A DNA stretch of 32,000 nt, from the NCBI RefSeq assembly GCF_004365815.1, contig NZ_SODD01000002.1, forward strand, positions 60,001 to 92,000, written 5' to 3'. The notes beneath the pieces were generated by a model, which saw nothing but the letters and a program-made list of their open reading frames with translations, was not told the DNA's origin and ran no database searches. Both the position numbers and the translations under genes were made by a program. The stretch comes from Breznakia blatticola (lineage in GTDB: Bacteria > Bacillota_I > Bacilli_A > Erysipelotrichales > Erysipelotrichaceae). Numbering within the stretch: position 1 is the first letter of the stretch; each line of letters begins with the position of its first letter. This document shows positions 21,325 through 31,164 of the stretch, piece after piece.

Positions 21325-23931
21325 ATGAGTGCCTATACAAATGAAGCAAAGTATGTTTTGCAAGATTTGCAAAGTGATCCTAGCAATGGATTATCAACAC
21401 AAGAAGTAGAAAAACGATTGTCTACTTATGGATATAACAAACTACATGAAAGTAAGAAAAAAACATTAGTACAGCGTTTTATTGAGCAATTCAAAGATGT
21501 AATGATTATTATTTTATTAATTGCTGCTGCAATTAGTTTTGTTGTTGCATTTGAAGAAAAAAGCGCATCTGCATTTTTTGAACCATTATTGATTTTATTT
21601 ATCGTAGTGTTGAATGCGATTGTTGGTGTATATCAAGAAAATAAAGCAGAGAAATCACTTGAAGCACTGCAAAAGATGACGACACCACAATCAAGAGTGA
21701 TTCGCGATGGGAAAGAACAAATTATACAAACGAGTGATTTGGTTCCAGGTGATATTGTAAAACTTGAAGCAGGGGATTTTATTCCTGCAGATTGTCGTCT
21801 AGTCGAAGCAAATGCATTAAAAAGTGATGAATCGATATTAACTGGAGAAAGTGTTCCAGTTGATAAAAAAGCGGATGCAATCATTGCGGAAAATGAACCA
21901 CTTGGTGACCGTGTCAATATGGTATATTCAGGATGTGTACTGACAAATGGTACAGCTATTGCAGTAGTTACAGAAACTGGAATGCAAACAGAAATGGGTA
22001 AGATTGCTGGATTGTTGGATGGTGATGATAATCAAAAAACACCACTTCAAGAACGTCTTGCAAAACTAGGTACATACTTAGGAATTGTTGCCTTGATTAT
22101 TTGTGCGATTATCTTCGTGATGGGGATTATGGATGGAATGCCAATATTAGAAATCTTTATGACTGCAGTGAGTTTAGCTGTTTCAGCGATTCCAGAAGGG
22201 CTTCCAGTAATCGTTACAGTTGTATTATCGATTGGTGTTGGTCGTATGGCACAACGTCATGCAATCGTGAAACGTTTACCTGCGGTTGAAACATTAGGTA
22301 GCACATCGATTATCTGTTCAGATAAAACAGGAACACTGACTCAAAACAAGATGACGTTATTAAAAGCATACGTTGATGGGCAAGAAATTGAAGATATAAG
22401 TGATCACAATGATGAACAAGTAAAGAAACTGCTTGCTTATGCGATTCTATGTAGTGATGCAAGTATTTATATTGATGATGAAGGTAAGGAAGTCAGCGTA
22501 GGAGATCCAACTGAGACAAGTATTATTGCAGCAGGACGAAAAAATGGCATGATGCAAGATGACTTAGCTACAACATATCCACGCCTAGCAGAGCTTCCTT
22601 TTGATAGTGATCGTAAGATGATGTCAACCATTAATCAAATCGATGGAAAAAATATTGTCATAGTAAAAGGTGCTTATGACGAGATGAATTTACATATGAT
22701 TCATGGGGATTTAGGTAAAGCTGCAGAAGTAGTTGAAGCGATGAGTAAAGAAGCATTACGTGTAATTGCTGTCGCATACAAAGAAATCGATGAAATACCT
22801 ACAGAACTCACAAGTGAAATACTTGAAAATGATTTAACATTTATGGGTGTGGTTGGTATGATTGACCCACCACGTGAAGAAGTAAAAGCAAGTGTTGCAA
22901 CATGTATCAAAGCTGGAATTAAGCCAATTATGATTACAGGTGACCATGTCTTAACTGCAACGGTTATTGCAAGTCAACTGGGTATCTATAAAGAAGGTGA
23001 TCTAGCAATTAGTGGACAAGAACTTATCAAAATGAGCGATGAAGAACTCAGTGATCAGTTAGAAAAAATATCTGTCTATGCACGTGTATCGCCTGAAGAT
23101 AAAATTCGAATTGTCAAAGCATGGCAAGCAAAAGATAAAGTCGTGTCGATGACAGGAGATGGTGTAAATGATGCACCATCACTAAAAGCAGCGGATATAG
23201 GTTGTGCAATGGGAATCACAGGAACAGATGTCGCAAAAAGTGCTGCGGATTTAATCTTGATGGATGATAACTTTGCGACAATTGTTGAAGCAGTACGCGA
23301 AGGTCGCGGCATATATAATAATATTCGTCGAGTCGTTGGTTACTTATTAGGAACGAATATTGGAGAAATCGCAGTTGTATTCTTTGCGATGTTATTGTGG
23401 CGAAAAACACCACTACTATCAATGCAACTTTTATGGATTAACTTGGCTACTGATTCTTTACCAGCGATTGCTTTAGGAATGGAACCAATTCACGAAGGTG
23501 TAATGAACGAAAAACCTAGACCAAAACAAGAAGGTATTTTCGCTAATGGACTGGGCGTACAAGTTGTCTTACAAGGAATTATGTTTGGTCTACTCTCACT
23601 AATTGCATTTAAAATTGGAATGGATGATGGCGGATTAGCAGATGGACGTACGATGGCATTTATTGTTTTAGGTTTATCACAGGTACACCATGCATTTAGT
23701 ATGCGTTCGCATAAAAGTCTATTTAAAATTGGACCATTTACAAATAAGAGTTTGAATAAAGCAGCAGCAGTATCCATCGCGTTGATGCTTATCGTAATTT
23801 TCATTCAACCGATTACGACAATCTTTGGCTTGGATCATTTATCCATCCATTTATATGCCATGGCCTGGATCTTAAGTATTACCCCAGTTATTGTCTTGGA
23901 AATTGCCAAAGCTTTAGGTCTAGCAAAATAA
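21325..23931 (+). CDS. Type II (Ca2+-type, SERCA/YloB-like) cation-transporting P-type ATPase
   Basis: TGES, PEGLP in TM4, DKTGTLT, MITGDH and TGDGVNDAPSLK motifs. An N-terminal Cation_ATPase_N-like segment (GLSTQEVEKRLSTYGYN) and ~10 TM segments. SD GGAGGA and -10 TATAAT near 21293. Confidence 0.9.
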   Translation: MSAYTNEAKYVLQDLQSDPSNGLSTQEVEKRLSTYGYNKLHESKKKTLVQRFIEQFKDVMIIILLIAAAISFVVAFEEKSASAFFEPLLILFIVVLNAIVGVYQENKAEKSLEALQKMTTPQSRVIRDGKEQIIQTSDLVPGDIVKLEAGDFIPADCRLVEANALKSDESILTGESVPVDKKADAIIAENEPLGDRVNMVYSGCVLTNGTAIAVVTETGMQTEMGKIAGLLDGDDNQKTPLQERLAKLGTYLGIVALIICAIIFVMGIMDGMPILEIFMTAVSLAVSAIPEGLPVIVTVVLSIGVGRMAQRHAIVKRLPAVETLGSTSIICSDKTGTLTQNKMTLLKAYVDGQEIEDISDHNDEQVKKLLAYAILCSDASIYIDDEGKEVSVGDPTETSIIAAGRKNGMMQDDLATTYPRLAELPFDSDRKMMSTINQIDGKNIVIVKGAYDEMNLHMIHGDLGKAAEVVEAMSKEALRVIAVAYKEIDEIPTELTSEILENDLTFMGVVGMIDPPREEVKASVATCIKAGIKPIMITGDHVLTATVIASQLGIYKEGDLAISGQELIKMSDEELSDQLEKISVYARVSPEDKIRIVKAWQAKDKVVSMTGDGVNDAPSLKAADIGCAMGITGTDVAKSAADLILMDDNFATIVEAVREGRGIYNNIRRVVGYLLGTNIGEIAVVFFAMLLWRKTPLLSMQLLWINLATDSLPAIALGMEPIHEGVMNEKPRPKQEGIFANGLGVQVVLQGIMFGLLSLIAFKIGMDDGGLADGRTMAFIVLGLSQVHHAFSMRSHKSLFKIGPFTNKSLNKAAAVSIALMLIVIFIQPITTIFGLDHLSIHLYAMAWILSITPVIVLEIAKALGLAK

Positions 23932-23948
23932 TCAAAATACTATAAAGA

Positions 23949-23979
23949 AGCATAAGTAGCAAATACTTGTGCTTTTTTG
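23949..23979 (+). terminator. Rho-independent terminator after the Ca-type ATPase
   Basis: 10-bp stem AGCATAAGTA (23949-23958) / TACTTGTGCT (23964-23973), including one G-U pair, with loop GCAAA and T6. Confidence 0.8.
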
Positions 23980-23986
23980 ATGAAAC

Positions 23987-24000
23987 TTGATATCCATCAA
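23987..24000. promoter_or_regulatory. Perfect FNR/FLP-type box TTGAT-ATCC-ATCAA upstream of the P1B ATPase
   Basis: Exact TTGAT-N4-ATCAA. It ends 22 nt upstream of TATACT (24023-24028), which places the box centre near -41.5 relative to a predicted start at ~24035. Confidence 0.7.
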
Positions 24001-24054
24001 TTTTTATCTATAAGTGATCTTCTATACTAGGAGTAGATAAAGGAAGTGGTATAG

Positions 24055-25908
24055 ATGAAACGATATATACTAAAACACAGAAATCAAATAACAATCTTTA
24101 CATTGGTTGTCATAGTTGTTGCCTTTGTGCTTCACTACGCTTTTCACCAAACGCAACAAAGTGAAATCTTATTACTGGTTGCATCCATTGTTGGGGGTAT
24201 ACCTATTTGGATGCAAGCATTGGAAGCGTTGCGTCTTAAAATCATTAGCATTGATTTACTAGTAAGTATTGCAATCATTGGTGCGTTGACCATTCAAAAC
24301 TATGAGGAATCTGCCATTGTTACATTCTTGTTTTTGTTTGGACTTTCCTTAGAACAAAGAACATTGGCAAAAACTCGATTGGCAATTCAAGAGCTTGTTT
24401 CTATGGCACCCAAACGAGCGTTACGAGTTGGAGTTGATGATGTTGTAGAAGAAGTTGATGTTGATGATTTGCAGTTTGGGGATGTACTGCTTGTAAAAAC
24501 GGGGGGTCAAATTCCGGTGGATGGTTTGGTCATTGCCGGTGAAGGTTATAGTAATGAAGCAACCATTACTGGAGAGTCACTGCCTGTGTTTAAACAAAAA
24601 GATGACCCAGTGTATGCAGGAACAATCCTAGAAAATGGAACTTTGCGTATTTATGCCCAAAAGGTTGGAGAAGATACTACTTTTGGTAAAATAATCGAGC
24701 TTGTCGAAGAAGCACAAGATGCCAAATCTCAAGCGGAGCGGTTTATTGATCGATTTTCTAAATACTATACGCCGGTTGTTTTATTACTCGCTTTGGTTGT
24801 TTGGTGGGTTTCGCAAAGTGTGGAACTAGCTATTACAATTTTGGTTTTGGGTTGTCCAGGAGCGTTGGTGATTGGTGTCCCCGTATCCAATGTGTCTGGT
24901 TTAGGAAATGGAGCGAAACACGGTGTGCTCTTAAAAGGAAGTAGTGTCATCCAAAGTTTTAGCAAAGTTGATACAATGGTATTTGATAAAACTGGGACAC
25001 TGACTGTGGGTAACCCTGAAGTGGTACATGTAATCAGTTATACAAAAAAACAAGATCAAGCATTGCAATATCTGGTGAGCGTTGAAAGGGAATCTCAGCA
25101 TCCACTAGCTAAAGCAATCATTGAAGCATACAAAGATATTCAAAGTTTACCAGTAAGTCAAACACGTGTTATTCGTGGTGATGGAATCATTGCAAAAGTC
25201 GCTGGAGAAGTGGTGATGGTTGGAACGCCGACCTTATTAAAAAATCATCAGGTTATATTTGACAAACAGATGGAAGCTGATATTGCAGAACTCGAAAATC
25301 AAGGTCATTCACTTGTACTTGTAAGTGTAGGAGGAAGTGTAGCATTATTGATTGCCATTCGTGATGTCTTGCGTCAAGATATTGTAAAAGATCTTCTAGA
25401 TTTACAGAAAATGGGTATAAGTGACTTAGTTTTACTGTCTGGAGATAGTCAAAGTGCTGTTGATGTCATCGCTCATCAACTGGGTCTTTCAAAAGCTTTT
25501 GGGAAGATGTTGCCTAAAGATAAAGCGGCATATGTGAAAGAACTTCAACAACAAGGACATGTTGTTGCATTTGTTGGGGATGGCATTAATGATAGCCCTT
25601 CTCTTGCGCAAGCAGATATAGGTATTGCCATGGGTTCAGGGACTGATGTAGCCATTGAAACCTCTGATGTTGTGTTAATGAATTCTGATTTTCATAAACT
25701 ACCATATGCACTTGGATTGGCCAAAGCAACCAATCGAAATATGAAACAAAACATTATAATTGCAATAGCAGTAGTCATCTTCCTTTTGCTTGGTGTGTTT
25801 TTCAGTCAATGGATGAATATGGCAATTGGTATGTTTGTCCATGAAGGTAGCATTCTTGTTGTTATCCTTAATGGTATGCGCTTATTGAAATATAAATTAA
25901 AAAAATGA
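24055..25908 (+). CDS. P1B-type heavy-metal-translocating P-type ATPase with no fused N-terminal metal-binding domain and an atypical TM metal-site motif (CPG)
   Basis: TGES, DKTGTLT, LSGDS, GDGINDSPSLAQADIG. The TM motif is LGCPGALVIGVP (CPG at 24853-24861) rather than CPC/SPC. The last TM carries HEGS (25840-25851). There are 4 TM segments before the actuator domain. SD AAAGGAAG. Confidence 0.9.
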   Translation: MKRYILKHRNQITIFTLVVIVVAFVLHYAFHQTQQSEILLLVASIVGGIPIWMQALEALRLKIISIDLLVSIAIIGALTIQNYEESAIVTFLFLFGLSLEQRTLAKTRLAIQELVSMAPKRALRVGVDDVVEEVDVDDLQFGDVLLVKTGGQIPVDGLVIAGEGYSNEATITGESLPVFKQKDDPVYAGTILENGTLRIYAQKVGEDTTFGKIIELVEEAQDAKSQAERFIDRFSKYYTPVVLLLALVVWWVSQSVELAITILVLGCPGALVIGVPVSNVSGLGNGAKHGVLLKGSSVIQSFSKVDTMVFDKTGTLTVGNPEVVHVISYTKKQDQALQYLVSVERESQHPLAKAIIEAYKDIQSLPVSQTRVIRGDGIIAKVAGEVVMVGTPTLLKNHQVIFDKQMEADIAELENQGHSLVLVSVGGSVALLIAIRDVLRQDIVKDLLDLQKMGISDLVLLSGDSQSAVDVIAHQLGLSKAFGKMLPKDKAAYVKELQQQGHVVAFVGDGINDSPSLAQADIGIAMGSGTDVAIETSDVVLMNSDFHKLPYALGLAKATNRNMKQNIIIAIAVVIFLLLGVFFSQWMNMAIGMFVHEGSILVVILNGMRLLKYKLKK

Positions 25909-25913
25909 AAAAC

Positions 25914-25927
25914 TTGATAGGTATCAA
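25914..25927. promoter_or_regulatory. Second perfect FNR/FLP-type box TTGAT-AGGT-ATCAA upstream of the HMA gene
   Basis: Exact TTGAT-N4-ATCAA with the same flanks as box 1 (AAACTTGAT....ATCAATTTT). It ends 22 nt upstream of TACAGT (25950-25955), the same geometry as box 1. Confidence 0.7.
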
Positions 25928-25981
25928 TTTTCTTTTGAAACCTTTGCGTTACAGTTAGCGTATAGAAAGAAGGTGTGAAAT

Positions 25982-26209
25982 ATGCAAAAAGCCGTGCTAC
26001 AACTCGAAACCTTGGCATGTCCAACATGTATGCAAAAAATTGAAGCTGCACTAAAAAACGTGGATGGTGTTGATAAAGCAAGTGTCAAAATATTATTTAA
26101 TGCCAGTAAGGCAAAGCTTGATTTTGATGCAACAAAAACTACATTAACAAACATTCAAAAAGCTGTAGAAACAATTGGTTATGAAGTACTAAAAGCCAGT
26201 GAAAAGTAA
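25982..26209 (+). CDS. Heavy-metal-associated (HMA) domain metallochaperone, CopZ-like
   Basis: 75 aa with a ferredoxin-like HMA pattern and metal site LACPTCMQKIE (CxxC). SD AAGGTG. Confidence 0.8.
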   Translation: MQKAVLQLETLACPTCMQKIEAALKNVDGVDKASVKILFNASKAKLDFDATKTTLTNIQKAVETIGYEVLKASEK

Positions 26210-26227
26210 CAGGAAAGGAGTGATACC

Positions 26228-26524
26228 ATGACTGTAAAAGACTATATACAAGAACATCAAGAACGTTTGGATTTGTATACGAAAGCAATTGTTAACGCGC
26301 ATGGTCAACATCATCCAGAAGTGTATGAAGTGCGTGAACTGTATAAGGAAATTGAAATGCGTAGCTTACATCATCAAGATATACAGCAAACGGTTGCCAG
26401 ACTTAAAGCAGTAACAAGTGATTTCGCTGTTCCCAGTGATGTTTGTCAAACGTTTTTACAAACCTATGAAATGTTAGGTGAACTTGCTGAAATCGCTGCT
26501 AGTGAAAGGCAAAGTGCTTGCTAG
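26228..26524 (+). CDS. Small His-rich protein resembling the central part of RIC/ScdA-type hemerythrin-like domains
   Basis: KAIVNAHGQHHPEVYEVRELY resembles the RIC pattern kV.rVHG..hPel. FAVPSDVCQTFLQTYEMLGEL resembles f.vP.daC.t....y..L.e. The terminal H...E helices of full RIC proteins are absent. SD AAAGGAG. Confidence 0.4.
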   Translation: MTVKDYIQEHQERLDLYTKAIVNAHGQHHPEVYEVRELYKEIEMRSLHHQDIQQTVARLKAVTSDFAVPSDVCQTFLQTYEMLGELAEIAASERQSAC

Positions 26525-26561
26525 TTTTAACGCACTACTCTAAGATAATGAAAAGGAGGTA

Positions 26562-27236
26562 ATGATGATGAGTGAACATATTTGCGTATCGCTTGTTCCT
26601 TTGTTTAATCATTTAGATATGAAGGATCAAAAAGTTATCAATACGTTAGCTAGACATAAGGATGTTACCAAAGGTGAACGAATCTTTTCGCCTGGTGATG
26701 AAAAACTTGTCATTGTTGCCAGTGGAAACATGAAAGTTTATCAGCTGTCCGCGAATGGAAAAGAACAACTGTTACGTGTGGTTGAACCGGGCGGTTATGA
26801 AGGTGAAAACCAACTGTTTGGTGCAACAAATGACAGTGTCTTTGGAGAAGCTTTGGAAAATATGGAAATTTGTTTTATAAACAAAGAAGACTTTCGTAAA
26901 CTGTTGCTTGAGTATCCACAATTGACATTGAAATTGTTAGAAATCAACGCACAAAAATCGCTAGTCTTGGAACAACAGGCACGTTTTCTTTCCATGGAAA
27001 AAGTTGAAGAACGTTTGGCTACCTACTTACTGGATGTAACGAAAGTTGTGGGTACTACAAAATATACATTGCCTTTAAAAATGAAGGAACTTGCTACCTT
27101 TCTAGGGACAACTCCAGAAACCTTGTCACGTAAATTCAAACAACTTGAAAGTAAAATGTATCTACGTCGTCAACAAAAACTGGTGGAAATTTTAGATAGG
27201 GAAGGCCTAGAAAGTATCATCTCAAATATGCGTTAA
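26562..27236 (+). CDS. Crp/Fnr-family transcriptional regulator, FLP-like (two-cysteine type)
   Basis: cNMP-binding-like beta-roll, dimerisation helix, and a C-terminal HTH with TPETLSRKFK (the E--SR recognition motif of FNR-type proteins). Only two Cys residues (HICVS and MEICF). Three consecutive ATGs at 26562/26565/26568; SD AAGGAGG at 26553-26559 favours the second or third. Confidence 0.85.
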   Translation: MMMSEHICVSLVPLFNHLDMKDQKVINTLARHKDVTKGERIFSPGDEKLVIVASGNMKVYQLSANGKEQLLRVVEPGGYEGENQLFGATNDSVFGEALENMEICFINKEDFRKLLLEYPQLTLKLLEINAQKSLVLEQQARFLSMEKVEERLATYLLDVTKVVGTTKYTLPLKMKELATFLGTTPETLSRKFKQLESKMYLRRQQKLVEILDREGLESIISNMR

Positions 27237-27296
27237 TCAAAAAAATGGTTGTCAAAACACGAAGCGTGAAGCGGATATAGATGACCATATTTTTTA

Positions 27297-27329
27297 CACC
27301 TTAAGTTAGCGTTATCTAACCTAAGGGTG
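27297..27329 (+). promoter_or_regulatory. Strong imperfect hairpin in the long flavodoxin upstream region
   Basis: CACCTTAAGTTAG / CTAACCTAAGGGTG gives 12 bp with one mismatch and one bulge, loop CGTTAT. No U-run follows. The 3' arm covers the SD-like AAGGGTGA of a 46-codon ORF at 27336-27476. Confidence 0.4.
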
Positions 27330-27503
27330 AGAAGTATGCATCTTGCAATGGAAAGTAGTTGTAGGTTGGATCACGCTTGGCGTATGTCTATCAACATAAA
27401 GAAACTGGTTGCAATGTTCAGTACGTGCACAAGTGTTCATCTTCATGAGTTTCATGCTAGATGCCAACACTACTAGGAAATATAAGAAAGTAGAGGATAA
27501 TAA

Positions 27504-27923
27504 ATGAATAAAGTTCTAATTGTATACTGGTCAATGACAGGTAATACAGAAGCAATGGCAAATGCCTTAGCAGAAGGATGTACAGAAGCAGGTAATGAGG
27601 TCACATGTGTGAATGTTTCTGAAAGTCCAAGTTTGGATGGATATGACGCGTACCTATTTGGTTGTTCATCCATGGGGGACGATGCATTGGATGAAGCAGA
27701 ATTCAATCCATGGTTTACTTCAATTGAAGCAGATTTAAAAGACAAAAAGGTTGCTCTTTTTGGTTCTTATGGTTGGGGTGATGGTCAATGGATGCGTGAC
27801 TGGGTCATTCGTACCAAAGAAGCCGGTGCAAATCTATATCAAGAAGGTCTTATTGTTAATGAAAGTCCAAGTGATGATGATCTTGCAACTTGTAAAGCGT
27901 ACGCGAAAGCATTTATTGCATAA
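27504..27923 (+). CDS. Short-chain flavodoxin
   Basis: MNKVLIVYWSMTGNTEAMA (FMN phosphate loop), GCSSMGDD and LFGSYGWGDG motifs. 139 aa. SD AGAGGA. Confidence 0.9.
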   Translation: MNKVLIVYWSMTGNTEAMANALAEGCTEAGNEVTCVNVSESPSLDGYDAYLFGCSSMGDDALDEAEFNPWFTSIEADLKDKKVALFGSYGWGDGQWMRDWVIRTKEAGANLYQEGLIVNESPSDDDLATCKAYAKAFIA

Positions 27924-27949
27924 AAAAATTCCAACTTGGAATTTTTTTT
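27922..27949. terminator. Bidirectional terminator between flavodoxin and the TetR gene
   Basis: AAAAAAATTCC (27922-27932) / GGAATTTTTTT (27938-27948) with loop AACTT. Confidence 0.8.
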
Positions 27950-28580
27950 ATAAATATTCATCTTTGTAAAAACGTTTACGCAGCATAATGAAGTACGCTT
28001 CAAAGTTTTTAATGACCGCATCAATATCATCTTGTAGCAGTTTTTGATTTGTCTCGATGTAACCATATGATGCATAAGTGATTAGTTCAAGCAACAATGG
28101 AATATCGTTTGGATCTTTAAATTTATACGTGTCTGCACGTTCGATAAGAGAACTCCATGCTTCATCTACCATTTCGTTTTTATATTTGACAATGATGTCT
28201 TTTACAAAGGGATCGTTATCGTTGTAAACCCGTAAAAGAAAACTGTAGCTGTCTGGATGTTTTTTCATCACCTTTACTTTGGTGTGCATAGAATGCAATA
28301 TAAATTCAAAGATATCTGAAATCTCCAAATAGTTTGATTCTTGCAGCCCATCCATCACAATGCGGATGACATAAACAAAGGCAACTTCAAACATATTCTT
28401 TTTATTACCGAAATAATGAAACAACAATCCTTTTGAAATTCCTGCATCTTTTACCATTTGATTTGTACTTGCTTTTTGGTACCCGTGGTTGGCAAATTCT
28501 TTAATTATTGCGTTCATTAAAGGGATTTGCTTACTTTTTTCTATCTTGTCTAATGTTTCTTTCATATTCATAGTATACAT
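27948..28580 (-). CDS. TetR/AcrR-family transcriptional regulator
   Basis: N-terminal TetR HTH (IIKEFANHGYQKASTNQMVKDAGISKGLLFHYFGNKKNMF). The true start may be the ATG at 28565 (MKETLDK), because codons 2-3 of the longest ORF form the -10 TATACT of its own predicted promoter, which would make the mRNA leaderless. Confidence 0.85.
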   Translation of the reverse strand: MYTMNMKETLDKIEKSKQIPLMNAIIKEFANHGYQKASTNQMVKDAGISKGLLFHYFGNKKNMFEVAFVYVIRIVMDGLQESNYLEISDIFEFILHSMHTKVKVMKKHPDSYSFLLRVYNDNDPFVKDIIVKYKNEMVDEAWSSLIERADTYKFKDPNDIPLLLELITYASYGYIETNQKLLQDDIDAVIKNFEAYFIMLRKRFYKDEYL

Positions 28581-28650: not shown

Positions 28651-29541
28651 ATGGATACAGTTATTAAAATTGATAAGCTTCAAAAGAAATTTGGAAAATT
28701 TGAAGCACTTAAAGATGTTAGTTTTGAAGTAAAAAAAGGAGAAGTTGTTGGTTTTATTGGACCAAATGGTGCTGGTAAAAGTACAACAATCCGCGTGCTA
28801 TTAGGGATTTTAAAACGCAGTGGAGGTTCAGTTGAAGTGTTTGGAAAAGATGCTTGGGATGATGAAATCGAAATCCACAAACGTTTGTCGTATGTGCCTG
28901 GAGATGTTGCCTTATGGGGAAACATGACAGGTGGAGAAATCATTGATTTATTTATCAAACTTCATGGTGGGGCAAAACGCAACAAACGTGATGAACTTAT
29001 TAAAAAGTTTGAATTGGATCCAAAGAAAAAGGCAAAGAACTATTCCAAAGGAAATCGCCAAAAAGTAGGTTTGATTGCAGCTTTGAGTGTAGATAGTGAT
29101 TTGTACATTCTGGATGAACCCACGAGTGGACTTGACCCGTTAATGGAGGCCGTCTTCCAAGAAGAAATTGAACAATTAAAAAACGAAGGAAAATCGATTT
29201 TGTTATCGAGTCATATTTTAAGTGAAGTAGAACGACTTGCAGACCGTGTGGTTATCATTCGTGAAGGTGTCGTTGTGGAACAAGGAACACTTGATGAAAT
29301 GCGTCATCTAACACGTTCCAATGTTATTTTACAAACAACAGGTGACTTGTCTGTTTTCAAAAACATGACAGGAGTTTACGATTTTCAACAAAAAGGCAAA
29401 GAATTGAGTTTCTCAATCGATCATGAACATATCAATGATTTGTTGAAAGTTGCAGCAACGATGCCGATGGACAAATTTGAAATAGTTCCACCAACCCTTG
29501 AAGCATTGTTTATCACGCATTATGAAAATGATGAAGCTTAG
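28651..29541 (+). CDS. ABC transporter ATP-binding protein
   Basis: GPNGAGKST, YSKGNRQK, YILDEPTSGLD and SSHIL motifs. SD GGGAGAGG. Confidence 0.85.
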   Translation: MDTVIKIDKLQKKFGKFEALKDVSFEVKKGEVVGFIGPNGAGKSTTIRVLLGILKRSGGSVEVFGKDAWDDEIEIHKRLSYVPGDVALWGNMTGGEIIDLFIKLHGGAKRNKRDELIKKFELDPKKKAKNYSKGNRQKVGLIAALSVDSDLYILDEPTSGLDPLMEAVFQEEIEQLKNEGKSILLSSHILSEVERLADRVVIIREGVVVEQGTLDEMRHLTRSNVILQTTGDLSVFKNMTGVYDFQQKGKELSFSIDHEHINDLLKVAATMPMDKFEIVPPTLEALFITHYENDEA

Positions 29542-29553
29542 GTGGTGAGTAAG

Positions 29554-31164
29554 ATGAATCGTAATTTTGCGCTATGGGAATATTTATTTATTCAGTATCT
29601 AAAGCGAGATTGGAAAAAGATTGTTTTTTGGATTGTTGGTTTAGGTTTGTTTTGCGGAGGTTTTATTCCTTTCTTTGAAGAAATTGCCAAAGGTGATGGA
29701 CTGTTAGGTATGTATGAAACCATGCAAAACCCAGCGATGATTTCCATTGTTGGACCAACACCGATTAGTGATCCACAAGCATATACGATTGGAGCGATGT
29801 ATTCCAATGAAATGTTATTGTTTTGTGGCTTGTTTGCCTTTATTATTTCGGCGATGCATGTGGTAGGTCACACACGTAGAGAAGAAGACTTGGGTCTTCA
29901 AGAATTGATTCGTTCGTTCCGTGTTGGTCGCGAAGCAAATGCACTTGCAGTCATGGTGGAAACGGTGTTGATTAACCTTGTGCTTGCTTTATTTGTTTGT
30001 GGTTTGATGGTGTCATTCAATTTAACCGGAATCGATGTTACAGGATCGCTATTGTTTGGTTTATCCATTGCGATGCTTGGAATTGTTGGTGCAGTTGTTG
30101 GCTTGTTGATGGCACAAGTTATGTCTACTTCAGCCGGAGCGATTGGTGGAAGTATTGCACTTTTAATCGTATTGTATATCGTTCGTGCGACAACGGATAT
30201 TTCCAATGTTTCACTTTCGATGATGAACCCGTTAGGATGGGGATATTTAACCTATCCGTTTGTCGAGAACAACTGGCTACCAATTGTATATGCACTCGTG
30301 TTCTCGATCGTTGGTATCTTTGTGGCGTTTGTATTAGAAAGTAAACGCGATATGCAAGATGGCTACATTCCTCAATTTGAAGGAAAAGCGCATGCAAGCA
30401 AACGCATGTTGAGTGTACCAGGAATGTTTTGGCGTATTACACGAGGCACAAATATTGCGTGGTTAATTGGTTTTGCAGTCATGGGTGCAGCTTATGGTTC
30501 TGTATATGCAGATATGCAGTCATTTTTAAACAGTAATGAAATGATGCAACAAATGTTTACAGTACAAGGCATCTCAATTGAAGTCTCTTTTACAGCAACG
30601 ATTATGTTTGTGGTACAAGGTCTTGCGATAATCTTGCCTATTGTAATGTTAAACAAACTATACAATGAAGAACGACGTGGACATTTATCACAAGTCTATT
30701 CGACAAAAGTAAGTCGTAATCAAATATACTGGTCAGTTATTGGTATTGCCATTTGCTTAAGTGTATTTGCCAATCTAGCAGGATCTTTTGGACTTGGTGG
30801 AATGGCTATAGCATCTATGAGTAAAAGCACCATGACGTTTATTGATTTTATTGGTGCAGGTTTCAATTATTTTGCGGTATTCCTATTCTTTATAGGGCTT
30901 GGTGGTTTGTGTATTGGATATGCACCAAAATTAGGAAAACTATTGTATTTGTATCTTGGATATTCGTTTATGGTAAGTTATTTTCTAAATCTACTAGACT
31001 TGCCAGAATGGGTAAATCAAACATCGGCTTTGAATTGGATGAATCGCGTACCAATGGAAAGTTTCAATGTAAGTGCATTTTTAATTGTCGGTGCTATTGG
31101 AATTGTTATGATGATACTTGGTGCTATTGGTTATCATAGACGAGATTTACATGAAGGTGTATAA
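29554..31164 (+). CDS. Large ABC-2-type exporter permease (about 12 TM)
   Basis: Two groups of about six TM segments. ATG at 29554 lies 5 nt after GGTGGTGA; the GTG at 29542 is an alternative start. Confidence 0.75.
   Translation: MNRNFALWEYLFIQYLKRDWKKIVFWIVGLGLFCGGFIPFFEEIAKGDGLLGMYETMQNPAMISIVGPTPISDPQAYTIGAMYSNEMLLFCGLFAFIISAMHVVGHTRREEDLGLQELIRSFRVGREANALAVMVETVLINLVLALFVCGLMVSFNLTGIDVTGSLLFGLSIAMLGIVGAVVGLLMAQVMSTSAGAIGGSIALLIVLYIVRATTDISNVSLSMMNPLGWGYLTYPFVENNWLPIVYALVFSIVGIFVAFVLESKRDMQDGYIPQFEGKAHASKRMLSVPGMFWRITRGTNIAWLIGFAVMGAAYGSVYADMQSFLNSNEMMQQMFTVQGISIEVSFTATIMFVVQGLAIILPIVMLNKLYNEERRGHLSQVYSTKVSRNQIYWSVIGIAICLSVFANLAGSFGLGGMAIASMSKSTMTFIDFIGAGFNYFAVFLFFIGLGGLCIGYAPKLGKLLYLYLGYSFMVSYFLNLLDLPEWVNQTSALNWMNRVPMESFNVSAFLIVGAIGIVMMILGAIGYHRRDLHEGV

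Follow-up and report, generated by a model that had tools for sequence, protein, structure and literature searches.

Judged from its sequence, the 32,000-nucleotide stretch of Breznakia blatticola DNA analyzed here (the window) contains a new copy of the FLP cassette, whose first descriptions, from lactic acid bacteria, date to 1998-2000. We consider it likely that the FLP regulator of this cassette activates its own operon together with a metal pump through two class II sites in a redox-triggered manner. A first-pass annotation of the same DNA had proposed an autoregulated redox-to-metal-transport switch, and this proposal is supported by the comparative evidence presented below.

In the proposed mechanism, a dimeric Crp/Fnr regulator of the FLP subgroup would read both TTGAT-N4-ATCAA sites through its E--SR helix, each box standing in for the -35 element that the promoter, with just its -10 hexamer, lacks. 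With its site centred some 41.5 bp ahead of the predicted start, bound FLP would recruit RNA polymerase (class II activation), so that promoter 1 would drive a P1B-4-like divalent-metal ATPase and promoter 2 flp along with the genes for a CxxC metallochaperone and a small RIC-derived protein. Since the second unit ends with flp, positive autoregulation would follow if the sites are its own. The input would most likely be the state of an invariant cysteine pair (the N-terminal Cys and the Cys at about 102); oxidative stress would switch the cassette on, because the oxidized L. casei FLP is reported as the DNA-binding form, and the level of some divalent metal of redox relevance would be adjusted. 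From sequence comparison we infer that the window regulator binds these sites, that it activates transcription instead of repressing it and that its trigger is redox-related, and likewise the kind of metal that is handled. The features involved are listed in Table 1.

Table 1. Predicted features of the cassette and their positions in the window
Feature	Position	Strand	Remarks
Intrinsic terminator hairpin of the upstream Ca-type P2A ATPase gene	23943-23979	+	Ends 8 nt before box 1
Box 1	23987-24000	+	TTGATATCCATCAA; perfect match; predicted FLP site of the ATPase promoter, centre at about -41.5
-10 hexamer TATACT, promoter 1	24023-24028	+	22 nt downstream of box 1; predicted start at about 24035
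P1B-type heavy-metal ATPase, 617 aa	24055-25908	+	TIGR01525, 547 bits
Box 2	25914-25927	+	TTGATAGGTATCAA; perfect match; predicted FLP site of the HMA/mini-RIC/flp promoter
-10 hexamer TACAGT, promoter 2	25950-25955	+	22 nt downstream of box 2; predicted start at about 25962
HMA-domain protein, 75 aa	25982-26209	+	PF00403, 46.5 bits (cut-off 24.8); CPTC at residues 13-16
Mini-RIC protein, 98 aa	26228-26524	+	Two segments homologous to the RIC/ScdA di-iron domain (AHGxxHPE, IPxDxC)
flp, FLP-family Crp/Fnr regulator	26562-27236	+	Likely start ATG 26565 or 26568; two Cys; ETLSR helix
Possible terminator (hairpin and U-run) closing the flp unit	27245-27296	+	Fold of 27230-27330, z -2.4; weak call

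The Last Gene Encodes a Regulator of the FLP Family

The identification of the last gene as a Crp/Fnr regulator with an E--SR helix held. Its product has the two-domain architecture of the family, with matches to PF00027 (cNMP_binding, 60.7 bits) and PF13545 (HTH_Crp_2, 60.9 bits) that both exceed their cut-offs, and its recognition helix is TPETLSRKF, in which ETLSR aligns with ETISR of FNR. FNR proper carries four cluster cysteines (three N-terminal ones plus Cys122), whereas the window protein has just two, and its score against NF008365 (Fnr) was 60.5 bits for a cut-off of 228. With one N-terminal Cys left of three, a four-Cys [4Fe-4S] cluster would therefore be impossible. The two cysteines, which had been placed at about 6 and 102-104, are C8 and C104 when counted from the first ATG, or 7/103 and 6/102 when counted from the two better-spaced ATGs that are the likely starts (Table 1), and C104 aligns with Cys122 of FNR. 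Both are invariant in the homologue alignment, and exactly two Cys were found in 142 of 164 homologues. Their conserved H-x-C and E-x-C context is as compatible with metal binding as with a disulfide.

Alignment with the FLP of the L. casei group revealed 42% identity over 213 aa (E 1e-58), C8 and C104 corresponding to C5 and C102, and on these sequence features we assign the window regulator to the FLP family as a true member. The L. casei-group flp locus (L083) was found by scanning metagenome contigs for the published flp primer sequence; its product starts with MAHSC and has Cys5 and Cys102 exactly, and this numbering together with the exact primer match points to the L. casei group. In a protein search seeded with the Lacticaseibacillus brantae homologue, L. 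casei FLP was absent from the best 120 matches.

We also infer that the cysteine pair of the window regulator would work as a dithiol-disulfide switch, on the basis that both residues are conserved and that the corresponding FNR residues share one cluster site. In oxidized Flp, an intramolecular disulfide confers promoter binding (PMC7162690). The peroxide sensitivity mentioned for Lactococcus flp mutants was found in the literature as well, where a flpA flpB double mutant is described as hypersensitive to H2O2; the flp deletion in L. casei IGM394, which had no growth or H2O2 phenotype, counts against the proposal (PMC7162690).

An unlikely alternative is that FLP senses the transported metal (Zn, Fe, Co or Cd) directly, DNA binding being switched when the metal binds and not by a disulfide, and that the cassette is an ordinary metal-inducible efflux system. 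The ligands would be the two Cys and, at position -2 from each of them, a conserved His (first Cys) and a Glu (second Cys). In favor of such a sensor, of 156 homologues 149 have H-x-C at the first Cys and about 145 have [T/S]-E-x-C at the second, every regulated gene encodes a metal-handling protein, and Scott et al. in 2000 reportedly found Zn and Cu in purified FlpA. However, the Glu is lost both in the L. casei-group FLP (TVC) and in the homologue encoded by plasmid pGdh442 (QIC), and the published in vitro switch is of the dithiol-disulfide type (PMC7162690).

Both Promoters Show the Same Class II Geometry

The first-pass annotation had described two exact TTGAT-N4-ATCAA boxes with shared flanks, and no further such site in the intergenic regions. 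Both statements were confirmed: the sequence occurs twice in the 32-kb window, both times in intergenic DNA, the flanking bases AAACTTGAT...ATCAATTTT are common to the two boxes, and among sites with up to two mismatches there was no further near-perfect intergenic box with the 22-nt geometry. Box 2 begins 6 nt past the ATPase stop codon, and at both promoters 54 nt separate the end of the box from the start codon. In shuffled versions of the window 0.22 occurrences were expected and 3 out of 100 shuffles reached two; the box count of two thus excludes chance only weakly. Chance is excluded because, within a comparative set of 80 related genome loci (1.1 Mb of orthologous sequence), 92 of the 103 perfect boxes found fall at the two promoter positions.

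As had been noted, each box ends 22 nt before its -10-like hexamer and neither promoter has a recognizable -35 element; the best match at 16-18 nt from either hexamer was 3/6, and a consensus promoter scan called no sigma-70 promoter upstream of the ATPase gene or the HMA gene. Both promoters show the class II arrangement, i.e., a box replacing the -35 element, a -10 hexamer of the form TAnnnT 22 nt further on and a centre at about -41.5, a position given relative to the predicted -10 hexamer. The proposed centres agree with the orthologous loci, where, again relative to predicted -10 hexamers, the 22-nt spacing was found in 81 of 92 non-redundant promoters (40/43 for the ATPase promoter and 41/49 for the second one). 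The box upstream of the ATPase gene is perfect in 47 and has one mismatch in 15 of 67 orthologous loci; box 2 is perfect in 45 and has one mismatch in 28 of 77. TATACT is the commonest -10 hexamer in the orthologous ATPase promoters, and the information content of the aligned promoters has two maxima, the box and TA..(A)(C)T.

That FLP instead acts as a repressor, covering the -35 region of a weak promoter that is derepressed upon its release, seems very unlikely to us, even though each box overlaps the expected -35 position and, in E. coli, a semi-synthetic promoter was reportedly repressed by L. casei FLP. An occludable -35 element is missing from the window promoters and from 90 of the 92 orthologous ones, nearly all of which have a best match of 2-3/6, and the rigid 22-nt phasing is of the kind demanded by a face-of-helix contact with the polymerase, whereas simple occlusion needs none. 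A point against the activation proposal is the statement that FLP binds sequences unlike those of FNR (PMC3590769); nonetheless, the sites that occur naturally in the L. casei-group locus are FNR-like.

The terminator hairpin in front of box 1 (-17.4 kcal/mol, z-score -6.3; none of 200 shuffles equally stable), whose 3' arm includes the U-run, insulates promoter 1. No terminator was found between the ATPase gene and box 2, and promoter 2 is therefore probably internal to a longer transcript. Hence, of the two promoter units claimed initially, the boxes and -10 hexamers stand but a fully separate second operon probably does not, and the ATPase unit and the HMA/mini-RIC/flp unit may not be independent. 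An Rfam scan of positions 23700-27600 gave zero matches, so no riboswitch or other known RNA accounts for the leaders. The GC profile revealed no compositional break around the cassette and thus no sign of a recent insertion into the B. blatticola genome.

Boxes and Genes Are Conserved Together

The window has flp as the distal gene, an HMA gene of the orfX type, a small gene in the orfY position and an adjoining cation ATPase gene, which is the composition of an FLP operon. As had been stated for Lactococcus, flp stands at the end of an operon with metal-transport genes: the order P1B ATPase, HMA, small orfY-type protein and flp was found in 62 of 80 loci, with mini-RIC in the orfY slot in 35 of them and a Dps-like protein in 27. 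The Lactococcus plasmid pGdh442 has the same layout with two perfect boxes. Boxes co-occur with flp in genomes of Bacillota, Bifidobacteriaceae and Atopobiaceae and on plasmids, and both the boxes and the 22 nt that separate them from the -10 hexamer are conserved in dozens of species from different phyla. In the rearranged layout of the Listeria plasmid pLMR479a four boxes precede dps, flp, the HMA gene and the ATPase gene, each 22 nt from its own -10 hexamer, and in two loci where the ATPase is absent (L021 and L078) a box lies directly upstream of flp. On this comparison, the four-gene cassette is well conserved and mobile, between phyla and onto plasmids.

It is most improbable that the boxes are read by another Crp/Fnr protein of the host (an oxygen-sensing Fnr or an ArcR-type protein) with flp as a co-regulated passenger, since, although TTGAT-N4-ATCAA is the generic FNR consensus and is readable by several E--SR family members, boxes and flp were co-transferred across phyla and plasmids while the other regulators of the hosts differ, boxes stay in front of flp where other genes are lost, and the window has no further intergenic site.

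Several perfect boxes were set aside. A third one in the MTC7 contig (L001, position 13489) was rejected, lying inside an opposite-strand ABC-transporter gene with no -10 hexamer, and those inside the ATPase genes of four enterococcal loci (L010, L043, L050 and L058), at similar within-gene positions, were taken as coding sequence.

The Cassette Encodes a P1B-4-Like ATPase, an HMA Protein and a Mini-RIC

The call of a metal ATPase was right and could be specified as P1B-4-like. Its best PDB match is the P1B-4 pump sCoaT (7QBZ, E 1.7e-98), slightly above CopA and ZntA; it has no HMA match and no N-terminal metal-binding domain, and the HEGS motif of TM6, in VHEGSILVV, aligns with VHEGSTLVV of 7QBZ. 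The closest solved relative, the HEGxT-type TM6 and the missing N-terminal HMA domain are those of a P1B-4 pump, but TM4 has CPG instead of SPC. This CPG, aligned to the SPC of sCoaT, is invariant in the ATPase orthologues (63/63), and nothing was found in the literature on a CPG motif in TM4. By these motifs the ATPase is P1B-4-like and a putative divalent-metal pump.

The 75-aa product of the second unit combines an HMA fold with a CxxC motif, as CopZ-like proteins do, reaches no equivalog cut-off, and its gene is conserved alongside flp in 76 of the 80 loci. It is probably the metallochaperone of the ATPase, which has no HMA domain itself. For the following gene, described as RIC-like, RIC homology was found (TIGR03652, E 1.4e-11) but not RIC identity, the score being 44.7 bits for a cut-off of 204.7. 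No Pfam match was obtained, and a profile built from 12 mini-RIC orthologues matches ScdA residues 90-138 and 168-208 only. The protein is thus a two-segment fragment, whereas RIC/YtfE/ScdA proteins are full-length, with ScdA_N and a complete hemerythrin-like di-iron domain; its position is taken by a Dps-like gene in other species.

Significance of the FLP Cassette

What the analysis yields for the window is a confident annotation and not a discovery. FLP has been known for more than 25 years, yet its target genes were described as still unclear in a 2019 paper (PMC7162690), and Listeria plasmid studies called the FLP-associated pumps uncharacterised. The comparison gives a precise predicted regulon, in which flp is joined by the genes for a CPG-type P1B ATPase, an HMA protein and either a mini-RIC or a Dps-like protein, and a fixed promoter design with a predicted site centre at about -41.5, for a cassette that has spread between phyla and to hundreds of plasmids in food and clinical Gram-positive bacteria. 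If it is an oxidant-induced export module for a metal, possibly iron, it would bear on how enterococci, Listeria and starter cultures survive stress.

A more specific reading, possible but rather doubtful, is that the cassette is a mobile oxidant-activated iron-detoxification module and not a zinc system. The CPG pump would then be an Fe(II) exporter from a P1B-4-related subgroup not described so far, the exchangeable Dps-like or mini-RIC partners would sequester or repair iron, FLP would be an activator filling the role that PerR has in other Bacillota, and the conserved H-x-C/E-x-C pair might directly sense iron-dependent oxidation. In that case the older reading of Lactococcus flp mutants in terms of zinc uptake would need a revision like that of ZosA, whose zinc reading was later revised and which was renamed PfeT.

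Comparison with Known Systems

The FLP of Lactobacillus (Lacticaseibacillus) casei was reportedly described by Gostick et al. in 1998. The window regulator shares with it the Crp/Fnr fold, only two Cys at equivalent positions and the E--SR helix, although the hosts differ (an Erysipelotrichaceae member vs. a lactobacillus) and the two proteins are 42% identical. In the L. casei-group locus, too, flp comes last after an HMA gene and beside a CPG-type P1B ATPase gene, and FNR-like boxes end 22 nt before the -10 hexamers. Its order is ATPase, HMA, dpsB and flp, so that a Dps-like gene precedes flp in place of the 98-aa RIC fragment of the window, and its boxes each have one substitution (TTGAT-N4-GTCAA and TTGAC-N4-ATCAA) whereas those of the window are perfect.

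The orfX-orfY-flpA/flpB operons of Lactococcus lactis are said to have been reported by Gostick et al. in 1999 and Scott et al. in 2000; the copy on plasmid pGdh442 was used here as their representative. It has the same order of ATPase, HMA (orfX type), small protein (orfY type) and flp, boxes 22 nt before TATACT and TATAAT, and a regulator 52% identical to that of the window. Here the orfY-type gene is Dps/ferritin-like, and about 700 nt separate the ATPase gene from the second promoter, compared with 6 nt in the window.

With FNR of E. coli and Aliivibrio fischeri, the window system has in common the DNA consensus, the recognition-helix residues, the distance between site and -10 hexamer (centre at -41.5) and the second Cys, equivalent to Cys122. 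FNR differs in having three N-terminal cluster Cys as against one in the window FLP, and in its regulon, which is that of anaerobic respiration and not a local metal cassette.

PerR controls P1B-4 Fe(II) efflux pumps (PfeT/ZosA of B. subtilis and streptococcal PmtA) together with Dps/Dpr. The likeness lies in a peroxide-linked regulator paired with a P1B-4-like pump and in the Dps protein of sister loci of the window cassette; the pumps also have no N-terminal metal-binding domain and share HE-G-S in TM6, as in sCoaT. P1B-4 pumps have been reported to export Fe2+ (PMC10654040). In contrast, PerR is a Fur-family repressor while the window FLP is a putative activator of the Crp/Fnr type, TM4 has SPC in the PerR-controlled pumps but CPG in the window ATPase, and the FLP cassette, unlike those pumps, is accompanied by a separate HMA protein.

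Two boxes of identical geometry precede the cassette genes

A pattern scan of the 32-kb window for TTGAT-N4-ATCAA retrieved exactly two matches, both intergenic, where 0.22 were expected by shuffling and two were reached in 3 of 100 shuffles. As shown in the table, one precedes the ATPase gene (box 1, promoter 1) and the other the HMA unit (box 2, promoter 2). From the end of each box it is 22 nt to a TAnnnT hexamer and 54 nt to a start codon that is itself preceded by a ribosome-binding site, and the two boxes share the flanking bases AAACTTGAT...ATCAATTTT. A distance of 29.5 bp between box centre and -10 corresponds to the -41.5 geometry of class II promoters activated by FNR and CRP. The best -35 match located 16-18 nt from either -10 reached 3 of 6 positions, and a consensus promoter scan called no promoter at promoter 1 or promoter 2. 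When up to two mismatches were allowed, no further site of the window combined a near-perfect box, the 22-nt geometry and an intergenic place. These results bear out the first-pass annotation, which had described two perfect boxes in the same geometry with shared flanks, neither promoter with a recognisable -35, and no other intergenic site in the window.

Features of the FLP cassette and its flanks (positions in the window)
Feature	Position	Description
Ca-type P2A ATPase gene	21325-23931	upstream neighbour
Terminator hairpin of the P2A ATPase gene	23943-23979	-17.4 kcal/mol, z -6.3
Box 1	23987-24000	TTGAT-N4-ATCAA
-10 hexamer, promoter 1	24023	TATACT
P1B heavy-metal ATPase	24055-25908	617 aa, without N-terminal metal-binding domain
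Box 2	25914-25927	TTGAT-N4-ATCAA
-10 hexamer, promoter 2	25950	TACAGT
HMA protein	25982-26209	75 aa, CPTC
Mini-RIC	26228-26524	98 aa, no Pfam match, sub-threshold RIC match
flp, Crp/Fnr regulator	26562-27236	cNMP-binding-like and HTH_Crp_2 domains
Weak hairpin and U-run 3' of flp	27245-27296	

The very stable terminator hairpin of the upstream P2A ATPase gene, which was missing from the output of the consensus terminator scan, ends 8 nt before box 1. Box 2 starts 6 nt after the ATPase stop codon, and since neither the terminator scan nor reading of the sequence revealed a terminator between them, promoter 2 is probably internal to a longer transcript. Searches against Rfam found no known RNA in the cassette region, and GC content showed no break across it. 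Judged by the position of the ribosome-binding site AGGAGG (26554-26559), flp more likely starts at ATG 26565 or 26568, from which its cysteines would be numbered 7/103 or 6/102, respectively. Downstream of the cassette lie genes for a short-chain flavodoxin (27504-27923), a divergent TetR-family regulator (27948-28580) and an ABC transporter pair (28651-31164); no box was found at any of them, and none is conserved beside flp in other genomes.

The regulator belongs to the FLP family

The window FLP contains exactly two cysteines, C8 and C104. In an alignment with 13 relatives that are 60-74% identical to it, many positions were invariant, including both cysteines and the PETLSR helix; of 164 homologues, exactly two cysteines, 96-97 residues apart, are present in 142, and GTTPETLSR in 157. 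The best solved relative was Aliivibrio fischeri FNR, whose ETISR aligned with ETLSR of the window FLP and whose cluster ligand Cys122 aligned with C104. Because the other FNR cysteines are absent from its predicted product, flp cannot encode FNR proper.

By searching metagenome contigs with 20 nt of the flp deletion-primer sequence published for L. casei IGM394 (PMC7162690), we retrieved the L. casei-group locus in seven contigs, which carry an ATPase, HMA, a Dps-like gene and the regulator. This regulator begins MAHSC and carries its other cysteine at residue 102, which is precisely the Cys5/Cys102 pair in the literature. Its identity to the window FLP was 42% (E 1e-58), C8 pairing with C5 and C104 with C102; the homologue on the Lactococcus plasmid pGdh442 was 52% identical to the window FLP. 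Given this cysteine alignment and the identity to both proteins, the window regulator is, by every sequence criterion applied, a member of the FLP family. The E--SR helix and the likeness to the two-cysteine FLP, both noticed in the first reading, were confirmed by these alignments, and its recognition of an FLP system was essentially correct.

Boxes and regulator gene are inherited together

A genome scan yielded 80 loci in Enterococcus, Tetragenococcus, Lactobacillus, Lacticaseibacillus, Streptococcus, Staphylococcus, Sporolactobacillus, Oceanobacillus, Clostridium, Bifidobacteriaceae and Atopobiaceae. In 62 of them the genes run ATPase, HMA, X, flp, where X is mini-RIC in 35 and a Dps/ferritin-like protein in 27. 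Upstream of the ATPase gene, the box is perfect in 47 of 67 loci and has one mismatch in 15; upstream of the HMA unit, the corresponding figures are 45 and 28 of 77. In the 1.1 Mb covered by the 80 loci, 92 of 103 perfect boxes fall at these two promoter positions. Once near-identical sequences had been removed, the best -10 lay 22 nt from the box end in 40/43 ATPase promoters and 41/49 HMA-unit promoters. The box itself, a single C before it, the two bases TT after it and TA..(A)(C)T were the only positions of high information content, and the best -35 match was 2-3 of 6 in almost all orthologous promoters. In two loci that lack the other genes (L021 and L078), a box still stands in front of flp. 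That boxes and flp are inherited together is the chief reason for regarding the boxes as sites of the regulator encoded next to them. Perfect boxes were also found inside enterococcal ATPase genes (L010 5574, L043 5584, L058 5585, L050 5312 and L019 5442), at similar within-gene positions in L010, L043, L050 and L058, and were taken as coding sequence.

The L. casei-group locus, whose boxes are TTGATCACCGTCAA and TTGACGACGATCAA (L083, 947 and 2815), showed the same promoter design, as did pGdh442, with two perfect boxes. The boxes of Lacticaseibacillus copies (L083, L035 and L044) occupy the conserved promoter positions and carry one substitution, reading TTGAT-N4-GTCAA or TTGAC-N4-ATCAA. These FNR-like boxes stand in discrepancy with the statement that FLP and FNR bind different sequences (PMC3590769), a statement that also counts against the mechanism proposed below.

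The Listeria plasmid pLMR479a (L089, 1405-8462) carries a rearranged cassette in which a 36%-identical FLP relative lies among dps, HMA and ATPase genes; these four genes each have their own box (4127, 4873, 6008 and 6473), located 22 nt before TATACT or TATAAT. An adjoining fetAB-type iron exporter and a cupin gene have no box. Relatives were present on 465 plasmid records, 366 of them predicted to be mobilizable or conjugative, and most of the 246 Enterococcus plasmid matches appear to be of the pLMR479a type. We also observed that a Lactobacillus delbrueckii-type cassette is nearly identical, promoters included, in contigs assigned to Bifidobacterium, Aeriscardovia, Galliscardovia and Faecalicatena (L029, L032, L036-L039, L041, L052-L056, L059 and L061), which points to recent cross-phylum transfer or to mis-assigned contigs.

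Pump and partner proteins

Among solved structures, the ATPase was closest to the P1B-4 pump sCoaT (7QBZ), with CopA and ZntA just behind, and it reached no NCBIfam equivalog. Its TM6 segment VHEGSILVV aligned with VHEGSTLVV of sCoaT, whereas TM4 carries CPG instead of SPC. CPG was present in all 63 orthologues, accompanied by HE[G/L/V]S in TM6, and the copies of the L. casei group and of Listeria have it as well; a literature search found no description of this CPG pump subgroup, its motif or its substrate. The P1B-4 class is broad in its specificity, and its bacterial members export Fe2+ (PMC10654040).

Mini-RIC scored 44.7 bits against the RIC model, whose cut-off is 204.7. The earlier label "RIC-like" holds only as partial homology, since the profile match covers ScdA residues 90-138 and 168-208, bearing the AHGxxHPE and IPxDxC segments; the protein is not a full RIC. 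Across loci, it is a fragment-like relative of the RIC di-iron domain of 92-98 aa, encoded upstream of the HMA gene in some of them. The Dps/ferritin-like partner has about 180 aa and an acidic tail, and was found in 27 loci with the ATPase and 5 without it.

Proposed mechanism

Most likely, FLP activates both cassette promoters from the boxes, with its cysteine pair as the signal. FLP dimers would bind box 1 and box 2 and, from about -41.5, activate promoters that could not work alone; promoter 1 would drive the pump, and promoter 2 the chaperone, mini-RIC and flp itself, producing positive feedback. The state of the cysteine pair would be the signal sensed. In oxidised Flp, an intramolecular disulfide confers promoter binding, and a Lactococcus flpA flpB double mutant is hypersensitive to H2O2; against this mechanism, deletion of flp in L. 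casei gave no phenotype (PMC7162690). FlpAB has been linked in the literature to metal homeostasis and oxidative stress. Another group reported that a proposed FlpA motif is absent upstream of flpB, having looked at the gene and not at the operon start.

A less likely alternative is that FLP senses metal directly: with the conserved His and Glu residues near them, the cysteines resemble a possible His/Cys/Glu/Cys metal site no less than they resemble a disulfide pair. The first cysteine lies in an H-x-C context in 149 of 156 homologues (window residues 6-8) and the second in [T/S]-E-x-C in about 145 of 156 (window residues 102-104), but neither the L. casei-group protein nor that of pGdh442 has the Glu. 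That the boxes are repressor sites is unlikely because the -35 is missing and the phasing of box to -10 is rigid. Reading of the boxes by another regulator is likewise unlikely, since they are co-transferred with flp.

Comparison with known systems

The window cassette is a further member of the FLP system known from L. casei and L. lactis, here in an Erysipelotrichaceae genome. It differs in the partner gene, which is mini-RIC, a variant common to 34 other loci, and not Dps-like as in L. casei. The locus is a solid annotation with a moderately interesting question attached. Four points in the present data go further than the older descriptions consulted: a promoter design that is both widespread and rigid, a pump subgroup with invariant CPG, two iron-type partner proteins that alternate, and spread on plasmids. 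Collectively, these features suggest that the cassette may serve oxidant-induced export of iron or another divalent metal, by analogy with PerR-PfeT-Dps.
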